From a virus, in the UHGV virus genome UHGV-0182470: DNA of 36,779 nt, one strand, 5' to 3'. Numbering within the stretch: the stretch's first letter is position 1; each line of letters opens with the position of its first letter. Both the position numbers and the translations under genes were made by a program. Positions 21,245-32,057 of this stretch are shown one piece after another. Under the pieces are notes generated by a model. It worked only from the letters and a program-made list of their open reading frames with translations. It did no database searches and was not told the origin of the DNA.

Positions 21245-23011
21245 ATGAACACCACACTGACACCCGCAGATCTCGATCCCCGTCGGCAGGCCATGCTGCT
21301 GTACTTTCAGGGATACCGCGTAGCCCGCATTGCTGAAATGCTGGGCGAGAAAGTTGCAACCGTTCACAGCTGGAAAAAACGCGACAAGTGGGGTGACTAT
21401 GGGCCGCTGGATCAGATGCAGCTCACCACCGCCGCACGCTACTGCCAGCTCATTATGAAGGAGCACAAAGAAGGGAAAGATTTCAAAGAGATTGACCTGC
21501 TGGCGCGCCAGTCTGAGCGCCACGCGCGGATCGGCAAGTTTAACAATGGCGGCAACGAAGCCGACTTAAACCCTAACGTCGCCAACCGCAACAAAGGCCC
21601 GCGCCGTCAGCCGGAAAAGAATGTCTTCACCGATGAACAGATTGAGAAGCTGGAAGAAATCTTCCATTCCTCCATGTTCAACTACCAGCGCCACTGGTGG
21701 GAAGCCGGAAAAACCAACCGCATCCGCAACCTGCTGAAGTCACGCCAGATCGGCGCAACCTTTTACTTTGCCCGTGAAGCCCTGATTGACGCCCTGCTTA
21801 CCGGGCGTAACCAGATTTTCCTTTCCGCCAGTAAGGCACAGGCCCACGTCTTTAAGCAGTACATCATCGACTTCGCCAAAGAAGTCGAAGTGGAGCTGAA
21901 AGGCGATCCGATGGTGCTTCCTAACGGGGCCACGCTTTACTTCCTAGGCACCAATGCCCGCACGGCCCAGAGTTACCACGGCAACCTGTATCTGGATGAA
22001 TATTTCTGGATCCCGAAATTCCAGGAGCTGCGCAAAGTGGCTTCCGGTATGGCTATTCACAAGAAATGGCGACAGACCTATTTTTCCACGCCATCCAGCC
22101 TGACCCACAGTGCTTATCCGTTCTGGTCCGGTGCGCTGTTCAACCGTGGGCGCAACAAAGCCGACAAGGTGGACATCGACCTGTCCCACAGCAATCTGGC
22201 TCCCGGTCTGCTGTGTGCAGACGGGCAATACCGCCAGATAGTCACCGTGGAAGATGCGGTGCGCGGCGGCTGTAACCTGTTCGACCTTGACCAGTTGCGC
22301 ATGGAATACAGCCCGGACGAATACCAGAACCTACTGATGTGTGAGTTCGTGGACGATCTCGCGTCCGTGTTCCCGCTCAGCGAGCTGCAGGCGTGCATGG
22401 TGGACAGCTGGGAAGTCTGGACCGACTTTCATGCACTGGCCCTGCGCCCGTTTGGCTGGCGCGAGGTGTGGATCGGTTATGACCCGGCAAAAGGTACGCA
22501 GAACGGCGACAGTGCCGGATGCGTAGTGGTGGCTCCGCCAGCCGTGCCTGGCGGTAAGTTCCGCATTCTTGAGCGTCACCAGTGGCGCGGGATGGACTTT
22601 CGCGCCCAGGCTGACGCCATCAAAAAACTGACCGAACAGTACAACGTGACATACATAGGTATCGACTCAACCGGCGTCGGTCACGGGGTTTACGAGAACG
22701 TGAAAGCGTTCTTTCCTGCCGTCCGGGAGTTCGTCTACAACCCCAATGTTAAAAACGCCCTGGTACTCAAGGCCTACGACATTATCAGCCACCGCCGTCT
22801 GGAGTTTGACGCCGGATACACCGACATAGCGCAGTCATTTATGGCAATCCGTCGCGCCACCACCGCCAGCGGCAACCGCCCGACCTATGAAGCCAGCCGC
22901 AGCGAAGAAGCCAGCCATGCTGATCTGGCCTGGGCAACGATGCATGCACTGTTTAACGAACCGCTGCAGGGCGAGTCCGCCAATACCAGCAATATTGTGG
23001 AGATTTTTTGA
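21245..23011 (+). CDS. P: Terminase large (ATPase) subunit P
   Basis: 588-aa ORF divergent from O; P2 gpP-like. Confidence 0.9.
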   Translation: MNTTLTPADLDPRRQAMLLYFQGYRVARIAEMLGEKVATVHSWKKRDKWGDYGPLDQMQLTTAARYCQLIMKEHKEGKDFKEIDLLARQSERHARIGKFNNGGNEADLNPNVANRNKGPRRQPEKNVFTDEQIEKLEEIFHSSMFNYQRHWWEAGKTNRIRNLLKSRQIGATFYFAREALIDALLTGRNQIFLSASKAQAHVFKQYIIDFAKEVEVELKGDPMVLPNGATLYFLGTNARTAQSYHGNLYLDEYFWIPKFQELRKVASGMAIHKKWRQTYFSTPSSLTHSAYPFWSGALFNRGRNKADKVDIDLSHSNLAPGLLCADGQYRQIVTVEDAVRGGCNLFDLDQLRMEYSPDEYQNLLMCEFVDDLASVFPLSELQACMVDSWEVWTDFHALALRPFGWREVWIGYDPAKGTQNGDSAGCVVVAPPAVPGGKFRILERHQWRGMDFRAQADAIKKLTEQYNVTYIGIDSTGVGHGVYENVKAFFPAVREFVYNPNVKNALVLKAYDIISHRRLEFDAGYTDIAQSFMAIRRATTASGNRPTYEASRSEEASHADLAWATMHALFNEPLQGESANTSNIVEIF

Positions 23012-24039
23012 TGGGAAAGAGTAAGAAAAACCGCGCTGCGGCGACGAAACAGCTCCAGCTTAAAAACCAGACTACAGCCGAAGCATTCAGCTTCGGCGAT
23101 CCCGTTCCTGTTCTGGACCGCCGAGAACTGCTGGACTATGTGGAATGCGTACAGATGGACCGTTGGTATGAGCCGCCCGTCAGCTTTGACGGACTGGCGC
23201 GCACCTTCCGCGCTGCCGTGCATCACAGTTCCCCGATTGCAGTAAAGTGCAACATTCTGACCAGTACCTATATCCCTCATCCGCTGCTCAGCCAGCAGGC
23301 TTTTTCGCGTTTTGTGCAGGACTATCTGGTATTTGGTAACGCCTACCTGGAGAAACGCACGAACCGATTCGGTGAAGTTATCGCTCTTGAGCCTGCGCTG
23401 GCAAAATACACCCGACGCGGATTAGACCTGGATACCTACTGGTTTGTGCAATACGGTATGACAACCCAGCCGTATCAGTTCACGAAAGGCAGCATTTTTC
23501 ATCTGATGGAACCGGATATTAATCAGGAGATCTACGGCCTGCCCGGTTATCTTTCTGCCATTCCGTCAGCCCTGCTCAACGAGTCCGCCACGCTGTTCCG
23601 CCGGAAGTATTACATTAACGGTAGTCATGCAGGCTTCATCATGTACATGACCGATGCCGCGCAGAACCAGGAGGATGTGAACAACCTCCGCAACGCGATG
23701 AAAAGTGCCAAAGGTCCGGGTAACTTCCGCAACCTGTTTATGTACTCGCCTAACGGCAAAAAAGACGGGCTTCAGATTATCCCGCTATCAGAAGTCGCAG
23801 CGAAGGATGAATTTCTTAACATCAAGAACGTGAGTCGGGATGACATGATGGCAGCGCATCGTGTGCCACCACAAATGATGGGGATAATGCCTAGCAATGT
23901 TGGGGGGTTTGGGGATGTGGAGAAGGCGGCAAATGTGTTTGTGCGAAATGAATTATTACCGTTGCAAAAAAGGATGCGTGAAGTAAATGACTGGTTAGAA
24001 CAAAAAATTTTGCGATTTGAGCCATATTCTTTGGGATGA
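23008..24039 (+). CDS. Q: Portal protein Q
   Basis: 343-aa ORF coupled to P (ATGA overlap). Confidence 0.9.
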   Translation: MMGKSKKNRAAATKQLQLKNQTTAEAFSFGDPVPVLDRRELLDYVECVQMDRWYEPPVSFDGLARTFRAAVHHSSPIAVKCNILTSTYIPHPLLSQQAFSRFVQDYLVFGNAYLEKRTNRFGEVIALEPALAKYTRRGLDLDTYWFVQYGMTTQPYQFTKGSIFHLMEPDINQEIYGLPGYLSAIPSALLNESATLFRRKYYINGSHAGFIMYMTDAAQNQEDVNNLRNAMKSAKGPGNFRNLFMYSPNGKKDGLQIIPLSEVAAKDEFLNIKNVSRDDMMAAHRVPPQMMGIMPSNVGGFGDVEKAANVFVRNELLPLQKRMREVNDWLEQKILRFEPYSLG

Positions 24040-24096
24040 TTTCTCTTGTAAATCAACATGCTTTGCTGTTCGATAGAACAAACCAAAATTTGATTA

Positions 24097-24557
24097 GTGG
24101 GAAAAGTTCATGGTACAGCAAGTATGGTTTTTTTTAAGGCAATTGAGAAAGACGATCTTAGATACTGGGGAAATGATAGTTATCCCGATGACTCATCAGT
24201 TTTCTATCGCTATGACAGTTTTGTAGCGAATCACAAAAATGTAAAAGACGGTGATATTATTATTATTACCAACAGAGAAAATATTTTAGGTATATCTGTT
24301 ATTGAAAAATTAGAAACACAGAGCATTAATAAGAAGCGTAACAAATGTATTAACCTAGACTGCAAAGCAAAAAAATTCTTCAAAGGAAAACTATAAAATC
24401 AGAGTGGCGTTGTGATAATGGCCATGAATTTGATGAACCCAGAGTGGTTTTTGAGCCAGCTAAAGAATTTATAGCATACTGCGGCAACCAGTACCGTAAA
24501 TTATCCAATATTACAATGTCACAACTTATAGATGAAACTCCACGCTACAATGGGTAA
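24097..24557 (+). pseudogene. Zinc-ribbon-containing ORF split by a frameshift in an A7 tract (24097-24396 in frame 0, continuing to 24557 in frame +2)
   Basis: Frame-0 ORF ends ...KCINLDCKAKKFFKGKL; the same region in frame +2 reads ...KKILQRKTIKSEWRCDNGHEFDEP...YCGNQY... One extra A in the A7 run at ~24370-24376 would join them into one ~153-aa protein with a Cys/His zinc-ribbon-like pattern. Confidence 0.45.
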
Positions 24558-25070
24558 ATGTCCATCCAAGAAGTTAACTATCAATGGGCTGTTGCTTTGC
24601 TTACCGCCCAACATACTATTATTCTGGAGCTCAACGCCAGCGAAGCTGATAAAGACACCCCCACTTTAATGGGTGAAGATCAACGGCAAATTGTAGAACG
24701 GCAAATAAAACAACGAAGTGGGCAAAAAACATTTCGCGACCAGCTATTAAAATCAAATCCTACTTGTGCGGTTACGGGCTGTAAGCTTGTTGATATTCTT
24801 GATGCTGCTCACATTAATGTATATCGAAACGATAGTCACAATCATATTAGCAATGGATTATTGCTCAGAAGTGACATTCATACTTTATATGACCTAAATC
24901 TTTGTGCTATAAACCCGATAACAAAAACCATTCATTTTTCAGTGGAAGCCTTGGAAAATGGATATTCGAAATTCGAAGGTTTAAAAATAAATACCCAACA
25001 CAACATAGCAATAAAACCACTATTAACAAGATGGCAGTTATTAAAATCTCAAAACTCTATTGATATATAA
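24558..25070 (+). CDS. HNH endonuclease-domain protein
   Basis: 170 aa; motifs RSGQKTFRDQLL...CAVTGC...LDAAHI...NGLLLRSDIHTLYD fit the HNH (restriction-type) signature; ATG abuts the TAA of the upstream ORF (TAAATG); AT-rich. Confidence 0.7.
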   Translation: MSIQEVNYQWAVALLTAQHTIILELNASEADKDTPTLMGEDQRQIVERQIKQRSGQKTFRDQLLKSNPTCAVTGCKLVDILDAAHINVYRNDSHNHISNGLLLRSDIHTLYDLNLCAINPITKTIHFSVEALENGYSKFEGLKINTQHNIAIKPLLTRWQLLKSQNSIDI

Positions 25071-25085
25071 TAAATAGCGACAACC

Positions 25086-25117
25086 GAAGGGAGCGTTTAT
25101 AATTAAAAGCTCCCTTT
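25086..25117. terminator. Bidirectional hairpin terminator between convergent cargo genes
   Basis: GAAGGGAGC ... GCTCCCTTT stem flanked by A/T-rich sequence. Confidence 0.5.
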
Positions 25118-25126
25118 AGCAGGAAA

Positions 25127-26155
25127 TTAGAGCACTAGGGGATCAGTGACCCATGCTTTATTATGGTTTTCTCGATAACAATCATAAATTAATAAATCCG
25201 TTCTTGTATCCGGTGGAAGTTCAATTTCAGGAATGTAATAACTTGCTGGATTGCTATTATCTAATGAAATTGAAAAGTTTTGATTAACGATCGTTGATAG
25301 AGACGTATTGGCTTCCAATAAGCTAAACGGGCCATATTTTACACAGTACATTACAACACAAGCAGCAACTGCATCCATTACATTTTCTAAAGTGGAAAAG
25401 TGGAATGCTCCTGATCTATCATGTTTAGTTTTATTATATGCATTATACCATGACAAAGATGTTGTAGGGGTACTTGCATTCCACCCATCAAAAGGTTTGA
25501 AATGCCTTAATCCGTCATAATTCAAATATTGAATTTTATATTCAGACAAATAACACTTATCTAATAATTTCACATAATCATTTGTGGAGTATCGACCATT
25601 TGAACGAGATAAATTCGAATTACCAATGATTGACACCCATTGATTTTCAACCTCAGTACAAGCAAGAATTAATAGCTCTCTACATTTATGACTGTAAGAA
25701 ATCAAACCATGGGCACTTGGTTCTACATATAGAAAAATATCATCGAGTTTTTCTATCAAAACTCTTAGAGCTTGCTCTGTTGCTCTTTTTTCAAACTCAT
25801 CGATACCTAATGCTGTTTCTGTATCATTGACATAATATAAGGATGGCCGCCACACTCCCCTAGTTACATGTCCAATTTCATTATCTAAAGGAGATATGTT
25901 CTGAGCCCCAAATACTCTCCGAACCCAATCATTGAGAGTTCCACTTCGTTGCTCAATAACAGTTAACCCAACTGATATTACATTAAATCCCACGTCACGC
26001 CCATACAGATGCACAAAATGACTTGTTGTTTCATAAGCGTAACCGAATTTGTGCTTTTGATGTACTGTTGTTTCAAAATTAGGAATGCGTGTATGAGTGT
26101 TTTCGTACCAGATTCCGTTCATCATCACCTCTAATGAGAGTCGATTATATTTCAA
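25127..26155 (-). CDS. Hypothetical 342-aa AT-rich cargo protein
   Basis: Long uninterrupted ORF on the minus strand in an AT-rich island between Q and the putative cos site; no confident family assignment (contains an RSGAFH, i.e. R-x4-H, motif). Confidence 0.6.
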   Translation of the reverse strand: MKYNRLSLEVMMNGIWYENTHTRIPNFETTVHQKHKFGYAYETTSHFVHLYGRDVGFNVISVGLTVIEQRSGTLNDWVRRVFGAQNISPLDNEIGHVTRGVWRPSLYYVNDTETALGIDEFEKRATEQALRVLIEKLDDIFLYVEPSAHGLISYSHKCRELLILACTEVENQWVSIIGNSNLSRSNGRYSTNDYVKLLDKCYLSEYKIQYLNYDGLRHFKPFDGWNASTPTTSLSWYNAYNKTKHDRSGAFHFSTLENVMDAVAACVVMYCVKYGPFSLLEANTSLSTIVNQNFSISLDNSNPASYYIPEIELPPDTRTDLLIYDCYRENHNKAWVTDPLVL

Positions 26156-26233: not shown

Positions 26234-26252
26234 CTCGTATCCCCGCCACGCC
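26234..26252. other. Putative cos cohesive-end site (P2/186-like)
   Basis: Reverse complement reads GGCGTGGCGGGGATACGAG; first 13 nt match the 186 cos sequence GGCGTGGCGGGGA as I recall it; GC-rich island in AT-rich surroundings. Confidence 0.4.
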
Positions 26253-28564: not shown

Positions 28565-30979
28565 TTAATACAGGTTTCGCCACTTATCATCTTCCTGCAA
28601 ACGCTGGTTCCGATAGAAGATACGCAGGCCTGCTCCTGATGGAATACTGCCGCCGCGAAGCAGTAAATCGACCTCTTTCTCGCTGCCATCAAATCCCCTG
28701 GACTTCAGTTCATACACGAGCTGCTGTCGCTGATGATCTGTAATTCGCTGTTTGTAGTCTTTACGCCGTTTCGGTTTCACAAGGCGTAACCTTGCTGCCA
28801 GTTCCCGGCGCTCTTTTTTGCTCATACTGTGCAGGTAATCGTGCAACTCCTTGTCATCCATGCGGGTGATATCCGTTCTGGTATCTCCATCAGCTGATTT
28901 GTCTTTCCCTTGTTGGTACAAATTTTCAGCAAGGGGACAGTTATTGCCACGAGTCCAAGGGGCGCAAGCGCCCTGGTCGGCTGCCGCCTCCTGAATGTCA
29001 ACGGCCTTACGAACCATTTTCCACTTCACGGCATGAGTGCAGATCTTGCCCTCTGCAATAGGTGACCAGATGCCATAAATACGAATGCCGTGATCGCCAT
29101 AGGCGGTCGGCTCTTCGTTGATTTCATAAGCAGTTCTGATGAGGTGATATTTGCGGGGAACCAGTACGCCGCCCTGCTTCATGATGTAGGTGGCAAAACA
29201 ACCAGCATCAGCAGCAGCCAGGATTGCATCAAGGCGCGGGTTATCCAGTACCGGCGCACCTGCTTTTTTGTCCCCCTGTTGCCTTGCCGCCTGACCAGCC
29301 AGCAATCGCAGTTCACGGTAAGCCTGACGCCCCGGAATGCCAAAGAAGCGGAATTGCTGAACACGATGCAGAGACGCCCAGGCATTAACGTATTCAGCAT
29401 TATCACGCAGGGATTTCCCCGTTTCCTTGCTGATCTCGCCAGCCAGACCACGCCCGTCAATGTTCTTACTGATGTATTTCGCGATGTAGCTTGTTGGCGT
29501 ACCTTTGCGCGGGTTAATCAACTCAGACTTAAAGCGCGGTCCAGTGTTATTGCCCAGCTCCTCGCGGTCTTCACGGATGGCAAACTTACGCAGTAATGCA
29601 GTGATGGCGCGGCGGTCTTTTTTGCGCATAAAACACAACAGGTGCCAGTGAACTGTACCGTCATGATGCGGCTCAGCCACCCGCACGCCATACCAGCGCA
29701 ATCCGGCTTTGTGCATCGCCTTACGAAATGCAGCAAACATGCCGACCAGATAATCACTACTTTGTCTTACCGTCGCATTTGTCCAGGTTGGGTTGGGCCT
29801 GCCGTTATTTAGCGTGGAATGGAAACGTGACGGACAGGTGATGGTGTAGAAAACGGCGCAGTCACCGCGCATTTCCGCGATAAGCTCCAGACCTTTAACA
29901 CAGGCCATCATCTCATTGCGGCGATGCGCAGGGTTGCTGCTGCTGGCGTTTACCACATCCTCCATGTCCAGCGTGTCGCCGTCTTCGTTCACCAGTTCAT
30001 GAGAACGGAAAAACTCCAGCGACTTACGGCGCTGCTCACGTTTATGCATCACGGCTTCATAGCTGACATAAGGAGATGCTTTTTTGCTAACCAGGCAGAC
30101 AGCGCGCAACTGCTCTTCCCGCCATTCGCAACGCATCTTCCATAATTTCCGATACCACCAGTCAGCGCACAACATACGCGCCAGCGAACCCGGAATGAGT
30201 TCATAGGGCACGGGTTTACGGCGGTTTCTTTTCCGGCGGAGTTGCTCAAACGCAGGCGGGATGACATCCAGACGCAGGGTTTCCGCTGCCACCTTTTCCC
30301 ATGTATTGCGGATTTCTTCTGGCTTAACGTCATCGGTGACATACAAATCGCCACAAGCTGCATCAAGGCACATGCTCATATGCGCAGCGACAAGGGTAGA
30401 CAAGCGTTTCACCTGATCCTGACTCATTTCAGGCAGGATCAGCAGGCCGTCCAGCCCTTCATGGCTTGCCATAAAGCGAAAAGAAGTGGATAGCTGACTG
30501 TCGCGTACATGCTCCAGTCGTTCCAGACATGGCTTAATCGTCTCACGCAAATAGCGGGAATAAGCCTTTGGCCTGCCCAGGCTGCTGAAGTATTCAATAC
30601 GTTGCATCAGCGGCTTGCTGATATGGGAAGGCTGGGCATTGACGTCCGCCAGAATGACCATGTCCGGGTTAAAACGCTGCTGCTCATGCGCCAGCTTTGC
30701 CCGACTAATGAGCTTATCCTGCTCCATTTCGCGCTGGACAGGATCACGGGATTCATTAAAGAAATAACGCTCCCAGACCTGATCACTCAGCGCCTCACGG
30801 CGCAGCTGTTCCTGCTCGTTATCGGCAGCGTACAGAGTGATCAGATTTGAAAGCGCAGAAACCGGCGCAACTTCCGCCGGGTCCAGATAAGGGTTAATGG
30901 CCTTTTTCGGGCTGTTCCATGAGAATGCTGCGGCGACCTCGTTAAAGCCGCTGCAGTTGTTCATATCAGCATGGCTCAT
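28565..30979 (-). CDS. A: Replication initiation endonuclease A (rolling-circle type)
   Basis: 804-aa ORF; size, position and sequence character match P2/186 gpA. Confidence 0.85.
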
Positions 30980-31833
30980 GCACGCACTCCGTACACGGCA
31001 GAACTATCCACGCCACGCGAAGGATCAAATCCCACCCAGCAGCGCGGCCCGGAAACAGCGATGATTTCTGTTGCTGATTTACCCTCGCCAGCTGCCACAC
31101 CGATGCTGCGTTTTACCTTGATATAGTGGTGAGTAAAATTGCGATACAGCGAACGAATCAGGGATGTGTCACTGTTAGAAACAATGACCGGATGTCCTTC
31201 AGATGATCGATGTTCAAGAACGGATGCCAGGTGATACTGGTCATCTTCAGTGAAACCATCAGTGTGATAGCCGGAAAACGTACCGTCATACGGCGGATCG
31301 CAATACACCACATCCCCCGCCTTCAACATCGCCAGCGTTTCATCAAAGCTGGTGCAGATAAACGTTGCCCGCTGGGCTTTTTCTGCAAATGCGCGAATTT
31401 CTTTTTCAGGGAAATACGGATTTTTATAATTACCGTAGGGAATGTTGAAATGCCCGCTCTTGTTATAGCGACATAAACCACGGTAACCGTGACGATTGAG
31501 ATACAGGAAATATACCGCTTTCATGAAATCAGTAATTTCAGTTGAGTAATTAAACTCCTGCCTTATGTTGTAATAAGCTACCTCCCTGTTTGCGATCTCA
31601 AATAAAACTCTGGCGCGAGATATAAACGATTCACAATCAGCGGCAACCTTTTTATAGAGGTTGATTAAATCAGGATTAATATCCGCAACCAGATAGCTGG
31701 GGTAATCCGTCTCCATCATCACAGCACAAGAACCCGCGAAAGGTTCAACCAGTCGCGGGCCAGCAGGAAGATGTTTTTTCAGTTCGGACATTATGGCAGT
31801 TTTATTTCCCGCCCATTTCAGGATGGTGCTCAT
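30976..31833 (-). CDS. dam: DNA adenine methyltransferase (Dam-like)
   Basis: From internal Met [11 protein letters not shown]...[10 protein letters not shown]...DPPY; motifs I and IV of Dam-type MTases; overlaps A start (ATGA). Confidence 0.85.
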
Positions 31834-32057
31834 ACAGCACCTCCGTTGTAATGTTTGCCTTTCAGCTCTGCGATTTCCTGACAGGTAATGCAAAGCTGCA
31901 CACCCGGAATGGCACGGCGGCGTGCTGGCGGAATTGGCGCTTCACACTCAATGCAAAGCACGCGGGACACGCCCGGCGTTTTGGCACGGGCAGCACGGAT
32001 ATGGCGTTGGCGTTCTTCTTCAACGCGCTGCTGTACGAGATCCATTGCATCAGCCAT
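31830..32057 (-). CDS. TraR/DksA-family C4 zinc-finger protein
   Basis: 75 aa with CIECEAPIP...CITCQ spacing typical of TraR/DksA phage proteins. Confidence 0.7.
   Translation of the reverse strand: MADAMDLVQQRVEEERQRHIRAARAKTPGVSRVLCIECEAPIPPARRRAIPGVQLCITCQEIAELKGKHYNGGAV

Follow-up and report, generated by a model that had tools for sequence, protein, structure and literature searches.

Organisation of the region between portal gene Q and cos

The window, by which is meant the whole stretch of 36,779 nucleotides that was analysed (UHGV virus genome UHGV-0182470), is an E. coli P2-like prophage and is 100% identical to strain C21 across the region of the locus described here. Between its portal gene Q and cos there is an AT-rich block, with a GC content of 35% downstream of Q against 54% in the P and Q genes. 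The block and its surroundings contain the following features:

21245-23011: terminase gene P
23008-24039: portal gene Q
24097-24396, plus strand: ORF of 99 aa in frame 1, ending in ...KCINLDCKAKKFFKGKL and a stop
24369-24375, plus strand: A7 homopolymer, exactly seven A
24558-25070, plus strand: ORF of 170 aa comprising a linker and an HNH_2 nuclease domain (Pfam HNH_2 match, alignment)
25086-25117: stable hairpin (fold -16.6 kcal/mol) between the convergent HNH gene and 342-aa ORF
25127-26155: ORF of 342 aa, convergent to the HNH gene
26234-26252: 19-nt cos sequence, the same as the cos annotated in phage SEN8

An earlier, sequence-only reading of this DNA had described, between Q and cos, a zinc-ribbon ORF split at an A7 tract and a TAA abutting the ATG of an HNH ORF, and this arrangement is present exactly where it had been placed. 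Frame 0 is open from 24354 to the TAA at 24555-24557, and reads ...KKILQRKTIKSEWRCDNGHEF...AYCGNQY...RYNG up to that stop; the ATG at 24558 directly abuts the TAA in the same frame and opens the 170-aa ORF. The sole ORF in this middle, frame 0 stretch is one of 37 aa with a GTG start. Insertion of one A at the A7 tract joins frames 1 and 0, as had been proposed, but deletion of a single A, offered as an equivalent repair, does not. The hairpin at 25086-25117 has a z-score of -3.8 (none of 200 shuffles was equally stable) and is likely to be a transcription terminator; it was not listed by a consensus terminator scan. No convincing sigma-70 promoter was found by a consensus scan upstream of 24110, a scan that is uninformative here, with 6 matches to the consensus against 10.7 in shuffled sequences.

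Intact relatives encode one uninterrupted protein

The same locus is found in Salmonella phage SEN8 at 92.6% DNA identity, where an A8 tract, a CAA codon and the sequence TCCTTT are accommodated in a single uninterrupted ORF of 319 aa. A protein search with this 319-aa sequence returned 1153 homologues, from Salmonella, Citrobacter, Klebsiella, Enterobacter, Serratia, Leclercia and others. Of the 120 homologues listed, almost all measure 312-335 aa; two are shorter (263 and 279 aa), a few reach 336-364 aa, and the truncated E. coli form is the remaining exception. An uninterrupted protein of 312-335 aa is encoded in more than 100 homologue clusters of the Enterobacterales; intact copies are present on more than 1000 Salmonella contigs and also in Citrobacter, Klebsiella, Enterobacter and Serratia. 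Neither a frameshift nor a stop was seen in the other 11 related loci whose DNA was compared (one of which, L010, has an internal run of N), and intact relatives retain the A8 in frame at identities as low as about 70%. An intact homologue of 78% identity, P0011, bears an E. coli name in NCBI and is found in P4-like satellites. In SEN8 and in nearly all of the 120 listed homologues the reader domain and the HNH domain described below reside in one polypeptide, and in the window copy they do not. Alignment with intact homologues, which had been suggested as a check on the sequence-only reading, therefore gives single fused proteins of 312-335 aa, the opposite of the consistently separate small genes that it had considered.

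Three lesions spread the gene over three frames

Alignment to the intact relatives allows three lesions to be mapped in the window, as a result of which the ancestral gene is spread over three frames: frame 2 as far as a T8 tract, frame 1 as far as the A7 tract, and frame 0 as far as the TAA, after which the HNH part follows.

24097-24109, plus strand: SD-like purine-rich stretch GTGGGAAAAG and spacer (5'-end alignment with intact relatives)
24110-24135, plus strand: authentic start ATG 24110 in frame 2, first codons MVQQVW, and lesion 1 (5'-end alignment)
24128-24135, plus strand: lesion 1, T8 tract replacing ancestral TCCTTT, a +2 nt frameshift
24136-24368, plus strand: body of the predicted PUA-like reader domain and first zinc-ribbon knuckle, frame 1, lying within the called ORF 24097-24396 (alignment, invariant C79/C84, fold)
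24346-24348 (TGT) and 24361-24363 (TGC), plus strand: Cys codons of the first knuckle
24369-24375, plus strand: lesion 2, A7 where intact relatives have an in-frame A8, a -1 nt frameshift
24376-24554, plus strand: second zinc-ribbon knuckle and end of the predicted reader domain, frame 0, including derived Y124C
24411-24413 (Cys) and 24423-24425 (His), plus strand: codons of the second knuckle
24555-24557, plus strand: lesion 3, a CAA codon (Gln149, the same in all of 40 homologues) changed to the stop TAA

All intact relatives have the N-terminus (V/M)VQQAWSFKAIE, and in the 5'-end alignment their start codon, equivalent to 24110, is preceded by GGGAAAAG, GAGGGG or AGGA. The 99-aa ORF opens with a GTG at 24097, which falls within the SD-like stretch of the window and is not the family start codon. 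Lesion 1 lies at a position where all intact relatives have TCCTTT or TCCTTC, and it cuts the authentic start off from the body of the gene, so that the authentic-start frame (ORF 24110-24226) stops after 38 aa. At lesion 2, the A8 of intact relatives reads GCA AAA AAA ATC (AKKI). The A tract is located exactly between the two knuckles of the zinc ribbon, which is why the Cys-rich end of the 99-aa ORF seems to continue in another frame. At lesion 3, CAA is retained in SEN8 and in the ET665 and FORC_081 alleles discussed below, and the ATG at 24558 is the internal Met150 of the ancestral protein.

The best explanation of these results, and very probably the right one, is that positions 24110-25070 are the pseudogene of a single 319-aa reader/zinc-ribbon/HNH_2 gene that is dead in the Escherichia lineage, with a function that can be proposed by analogy. 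The 99-aa and 170-aa ORFs called by annotation pipelines are fragments, not genes, and the window copy, judged by its sequence, is a pseudogene of a family member rather than a member. Among the readings offered earlier, that of a single sensor-HNH enzyme killed by frameshift and nonsense mutation is the one upheld by the fused homologues, with the addition of the 5' frameshift, which had been overlooked.

The alternative is that the pieces form a real multi-gene system, in which fragments carrying the reader and the zinc ribbon act jointly with an HNH nuclease that stands alone, and a two-gene nuclease system had indeed been entertained. The NCBI RefSeq records list the 99-aa and 170-aa ORFs as ordinary CDSs and not as pseudogenes, the same split is present on about 95 contigs, and the abutment of TAA and ATG resembles translational coupling. 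However, those contigs are copies of one allele lineage and are not independent, and outside this dead Escherichia allele lineage every homologue is fused and none is split in these frames. The split, moreover, runs through one predicted domain and between the zinc-ribbon halves C-x4-C and C-x3-H; the 99-aa ORF is without the conserved family N-terminus and has no SD-like sequence visible upstream of its start; and the middle piece offers only its 37-aa GTG ORF. Joint action of separate gene products is, on this evidence, very improbable indeed.

All alleles seen in the Escherichia lineage are disrupted

The locus is held, at 99% identity or more, by 12 of 5426 complete E. coli genomes, and all 12 copies are disrupted. 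Ten of them have the exact arrangement of the window (A7 and TAA), most with the same two RefSeq accessions; the FORC_081 allele has A7, CAA instead of TAA, and a 3-bp deletion, while the ET665 allele has A6 and CAA. The T8 tract is common to all three E. coli alleles. In an E. albertii allele the invariant Cys224 is lost (C224Y). The Escherichia allele lineage as a whole comprises about 250 contigs in addition to the 12 complete genomes, every member seen being disrupted; the clade traces to one inactivated ancestor, and it counts as a single event and not as repeated evidence. An A8 allele is absent from the 12 complete genomes and from the truncated Escherichia cluster members. A megablast search of all complete E. 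coli genomes with the P4-borne homologue likewise found no intact E. coli copy, its matches being confined to the 12 disrupted loci already described.

Long-read assemblies typically err at homopolymer runs, where two of the three lesions are located, and a sequencing or assembly artefact overlying a gene that is in reality intact had to be considered. Against this, the arrangement is identical in the ten complete genomes, which come from different laboratories, hosts and countries, and the 170-aa and 99-aa products recur on 94 and 96 contigs respectively; TAA is a substitution, and not a homopolymer error; T8 and TCCTTT differ by substitutions as well as in length; and numerous amino-acid replacements alongside mark a distinct decayed allele. 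Because ten independent genomes and about 95 contigs agree, and the TAA is a substitution, homopolymer error is excluded, and the chance that the real gene is intact is vanishingly small.

Slippage is very unlikely to account for the arrangement

A different way of saving the gene would be production of the full protein through ribosomal -1 frameshifting or transcriptional slippage, or use of the A tract as a phase switch that is on at A8 and off at A7. There is something to recommend this. Read in the zero frame, the A7 tract gives GCA AAA AAA, with an in-phase A_AAA_AAA heptamer (24369-24375, frame 1), and the T8 tract, read from the authentic start, gives T_TTT_TTA (24130-24136, frame 2); a -1 slip at each tract would restore the ancestral frame, the slip at the A tract giving the SEN8 sequence ...CKAKKIL.... 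Tract length also differs among alleles (A8, A7 and A6), and A8 has been retained in frame by relatives as distant as those described above, although such retention would be expected from AT-rich codon use (AAA for Lys, GCA for Ala). The likeness to dnaX-type -1 sites (A_AAA_AAG and related) lies in the in-phase A_AAA_AAA, of which the -1 product is the ancestral protein; unlike those sites, the window has no stimulatory element, its arrangement is not conserved in homologues, and it carries two further lesions. No stimulatory structure was found 3' of either tract (z = -0.69 and +0.08, no better than shuffles), nor is an SD-like element visible upstream of the A tract, and the homologues outside this allele lineage are all in one frame. 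Of the hallmarks of a programmed -1 frameshift, then, the slippery heptamer is present, and a stimulator and a conserved two-frame arrangement are not. Two successive low-efficiency slips followed by read-through of the TAA would be needed, the yield of which would be negligible. As for phase variation, which had also been proposed, the Escherichia alleles have A7 or A6 and never an A8 'on' state, and T8 and TAA are additional lesions that slippage of the A tract cannot reverse. The gene also bears replacements at invariant residues, as expected of one that is free of selection, and control by slippage is accordingly considered very unlikely.

Decay beyond the lesions

The window sequence was repaired in silico, and the Pseudescherichia locus (L009) served as outgroup for polarising changes. 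This assigned to the window lineage 18 synonymous changes and 28 that are non-synonymous, and to the SEN8 lineage 7 synonymous and 5 non-synonymous ones, a contrast that by itself is not statistically significant. None of the changes in the SEN8 lineage is at an invariant column, the invariant columns being those defined by 40 homologues of 52-91% identity, but the window lineage has changed at such columns by A5V, G23S, P97S, Y124C, Q149stop and R203S. A further replacement at an invariant column, E231D, was detected by comparison with intact relatives, and brings the invariant positions replaced in the window lineage to seven. At each such position the ancestral residue is found in the 319-aa protein P0130 of Citrobacter amalonaticus, the closest intact relative, which belongs to the same 90% cluster.

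Two features that had been taken at face value are products of this decay. The motif RSGQK, listed earlier among restriction-type HNH motifs, is a mutated form (R203S) of the invariant RRGQ. The zinc-ribbon reading holds for C79, C84, C101 and H105, but the Cys of YCGNQY has no part in it, being derived (Y124C) and not a zinc ligand. The 170-aa ORF retains the catalytic AAH...N...H residues but, at positions that are invariant or almost so, carries R203S, E231D and A237V; residual expression of it may occur by re-initiation at the ATG right after the stop.

Domain architecture and proposed function of the intact protein

The C-terminal part of the protein gives a Pfam HNH_2 match above the gathering score both in the window ORF (E = 4e-9) and in SEN8 (E = 1e-9). 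Its sole PDB match is to VcaM4I (PDB 6yex; E = 7e-9), in agreement with the earlier suggestion that the HNH domain is of the kind found in type IV enzymes. The window retains H234, N248 and H257, residues that are invariant among 40 homologues. C79, C84, C101 and H105 are likewise invariant, as conserved ligands of a C-x4-C...C-x3-H zinc ribbon. The N-terminal 150 aa, by contrast with the HNH part, to which the PADLOC models are confined, gave nothing above noise in Pfam, PADLOC or NCBIfam; PHROGs has a full-length profile of 319 positions for the family, with its function listed as unknown.

An AF2 model was built from 40 homologues. Over residues 1-165 the block-mean pLDDT lies for the most part at 75-94 but falls to 62-72 in places near the N-terminus; the HNH part is poorly modelled (pLDDT about 40). 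By fold comparison of this model the N-terminal domain resembles the PUA superfamily (EVE/ASCH/YTH-like), and Foldseek gave the same families more weakly (E about 0.02 for ASCH and VcaM4I). In the model, the zinc ribbon is a beta-hairpin excursion between two long strands of the reader domain. The N-terminal domain thus folds, as modelled, like a modified-base reader of the PUA superfamily, and the earlier proposal of such a reader gains support from the predicted structure.

This architecture is shared with the modification-dependent PUA-HNH restriction enzymes of Lutz et al. (PMC6765204) and Pastor et al. (PMC7897488), the closest known systems. VcaM4I (PDB 6yex), TspA15I and CmeDI are similarly single chains, about 300 aa long, in which a PUA-superfamily reader at the N-terminus precedes a C-terminal HNH_2 domain. 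They share with the present family the motifs RRGQxxFR...C..TG...AAHI...NGLLL...H, and have no cognate methylase beside the gene; correspondingly, no protective methyltransferase is found in the cassette here, the neighbours in the window, in SEN8 and in the P4-like loci being without a methylase domain. The two groups differ in that their N-terminal domains have no detectable sequence similarity, and in that the present family has its C-x4-C...C-x3-H zinc ribbon between two long beta-strands of the reader; the window copy differs from the VcaM4I group also in being dead. VcaM4I is not known to have such an inserted zinc ribbon. The word 'zinc' is absent from the text of PMC6765204.

By analogy with these enzymes, the intact protein is most likely a single-chain modification-dependent (type IV) restriction endonuclease. 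CMoRE / PD-T4-3, which combines a GIY-YIG nuclease with a 5hmC-sensing domain (PDB 9u75, PMC12923530), is likewise a single-gene type IV defence system in E. coli, but it has GIY-YIG in place of HNH, the opposite domain order and no zinc ribbon, and the structural match is much weaker. The END nuclease (PMC12191111) is a different family.

A variable cargo of the P2 and P4 hotspots

Two cos-proximal defence hotspots, P2 gpA-gpQ and P4 psu-int, were defined by Rousset et al. in 2022 (PMC9122126). In P2-like prophages of five genera the gene studied here occupies the interval from Q to gpA, where both orientations are found. Of the loci compared, L004 and L009-L013 belong to the P2 gpA-gpQ hotspot and L005-L008 to the P4 satellite hotspot, in which the copy of 78% identity stands beside psu, delta and alpha; the P4-borne copy has a 64-aa remnant of portal gene Q upstream. 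In its position (from portal gene Q to cos or gpA, or by psu and delta in P4), in its AT-rich, swappable character and in its varying neighbours the block resembles other cargo of these hotspots. The term 'HNH' is absent from the text both of PMC9122126 and of a 2026 survey (PMC13586616). According to that survey, defence pseudogenes that can still be recognised are rare in the hotspots, in contrast to the pseudogene described here, which persists in about 250 Escherichia contigs.

The gene next to the HNH gene varies: the 342-aa ORF is present in 3 of 12 loci, an unrelated ORF of 291 aa is present in the P4 copies, and neither is found elsewhere. An obligate partner gene was considered and rejected, since the 342-aa and 291-aa neighbours have no similarity (E = 0.13) and the former is so sparsely distributed; because its neighbours vary, the HNH gene looks like a single-gene system. 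An HNH protein of the HK97 type, assisting terminase in packaging, was also considered, since the gene adjoins portal and cos. It too was rejected: the domain is a restriction-type HNH_2 fused to a reader, and the gene is accessory (12 of 5426 genomes) and occurs also in P4 satellites and in non-phage contexts.

As far as sequence allows, the locus can be read as a decayed modification-dependent (type IV-like) restriction gene in a known cos-proximal defence hotspot of P2. [quoted passage not shown] If VcaM4I and TspA15I are a guide, the DNA of an invading phage would be recognised through a modified base bound by the reader, and cleaved close by through the HNH domain. In the Escherichia lineage the gene was then inactivated by frameshifts at two homopolymers, where TCCTTT became T8 (+2 nt) and A8 became A7 (-1 nt); the nonsense mutation CAA to TAA came after these, in the sub-lineage of the window; and replacements at otherwise invariant residues have accumulated following inactivation.

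Was the loss selected?

A further reading is that inactivation was itself selected, because the intact enzyme was autoimmune in Escherichia or against the phage's own methylated DNA, and that loss alleles swept. The genus split is in keeping with this, the gene being intact on more than 1000 Salmonella contigs and disrupted on the Escherichia-lineage contigs and in the 12 genomes, even if the intact P0011 is labelled E. coli. Toxicity in Dcm+ E. coli has been reported for several PUA/SRA-HNH enzymes (PMC6765204). The prophage, in addition, encodes a D12-class adenine methylase (30976-31893), about 6 kb away in the replication module, and self-targeting through this methylase had been put forward as the pressure for inactivation. 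That suggestion is weakened by SEN8, which pairs an intact enzyme with an orthologous D12-class methylase (73% identity) at the same position, and by the many intact Salmonella copies. Salmonella is also Dam+ and Dcm+. The T8 tract and a shortened A tract are found in all Escherichia alleles, which points to one event, and a founder effect explains the distribution equally well; the intact P0011, moreover, carries its E. coli label in one source and occurs in P4-like satellites. Selected loss is for these reasons regarded as unlikely. Slightly less likely still is its more specific form, in which the enzyme would read a modification made in Escherichia hosts, or by the phage's Escherichia lineage, and not in Salmonella, so that knock-outs were selected and kept. 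If this were true, the specificity of the family would differ from that of the 5hmC-directed VcaM4I group, and the division by genus into intact and dead copies would preserve a natural record of defence-system incompatibility.

Implications

For annotation, the consequence of reading 24110-25070 as one pseudogene is that the RefSeq 'hypothetical protein' WP_139289628.1 and 'HNH endonuclease' WP_077625619.1 are corrected to fragments of one dead gene. The findings add to the cargo of the P2/P4 hotspots an uncharacterised family in which a zinc-ribbon-bearing PUA-like reader is joined to an HNH nuclease, and provide a clear case of the in-place decay of a likely defence gene where pseudogenes have been reported to be rare (PMC13586616). 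Its points of interest are the zinc ribbon inserted in the reader, the contrast between intact copies in Salmonella and dead ones in the Escherichia lineage, and the survival of a defence-type pseudogene. The intact homologues, for example SEN8 gp02, are candidates for new type IV restriction enzymes.

Genes and signals flanking the HNH pseudogene

The HNH pseudogene, a decayed gene for a PUA-like reader, zinc ribbon and HNH_2 domain, is represented in RefSeq by records that match positions 24097-25070 of the window and present its fragments as normal proteins, namely WP_139289628.1, named 'hypothetical protein', and WP_077625619.1, named 'HNH endonuclease'; none of these fragment records carries a pseudogene mark, and 208-aa forms of the fragments are recorded from other strains. 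The features around it, and one from a related locus, are as follows.

Features near the HNH pseudogene and in the related locus L006
25086-25117, stable GC-rich hairpin of 9 bp in the gap where the HNH gene and the 342-aa gene converge
25127-26155, minus strand, intact 342-aa ORF between portal gene Q and cos, convergent with the HNH pseudogene
26234-26252, cos, 19 nt identical to the annotated putative cos of Salmonella phage SEN8
26494-27721, plus strand, CdiA-CT RNase A-like toxin domain, then CdiI_2 immunity protein (PF18431, PF18593)
30976-31893, minus strand, D12-class N6-adenine DNA methyltransferase (PF02086, E 4e-76)
L006 5717-5908 (CP016952.1), 64-aa remnant of Q, the P2 portal protein (62% identity)

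The hairpin (-16.6 kcal/mol, z -3.8) is kept in SEN8, where the HNH gene is intact, with compensatory-looking changes; it was not called by a consensus terminator scan. The 342-aa ORF (332 aa counted from the RefSeq start) is 91% identical to SEN8 gp01, and has thus been kept intact while the adjoining HNH gene decays. It has no match in Pfam, PADLOC or NCBIfam and belongs to phrog_19461, annotated in PHROG as of unknown function, and it may be an uncharacterised cargo or defence gene of the hotspot.

The 19-nt identity to the SEN8 site establishes where cos lies in the window. Beyond cos, towards gpA, the same P2 hotspot houses a free-standing 187-aa toxin domain (PF18431, E 7e-20) with the CdiI_2 gene 3' of it. 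The CdiA delivery region is absent from this locus, which looks like a toxin-immunity pair serving as phage cargo. The methyltransferase gene lies directly upstream of replication gene A, the position also occupied by the SEN8 methylase (73% identity). As mechanically listed, its ORF begins at a TTG 20 codons upstream of the Met at about 31833, the residue that aligns with the SEN8 start.

Possible exchange with P4-like satellites

L006 is a P4-like satellite, with psu, delta and alpha, and its Q remnant is situated directly upstream of an intact HNH gene. This arrangement suggests a transfer of the HNH cassette, along with a piece of Q, between a P2-like phage and a satellite of this kind.
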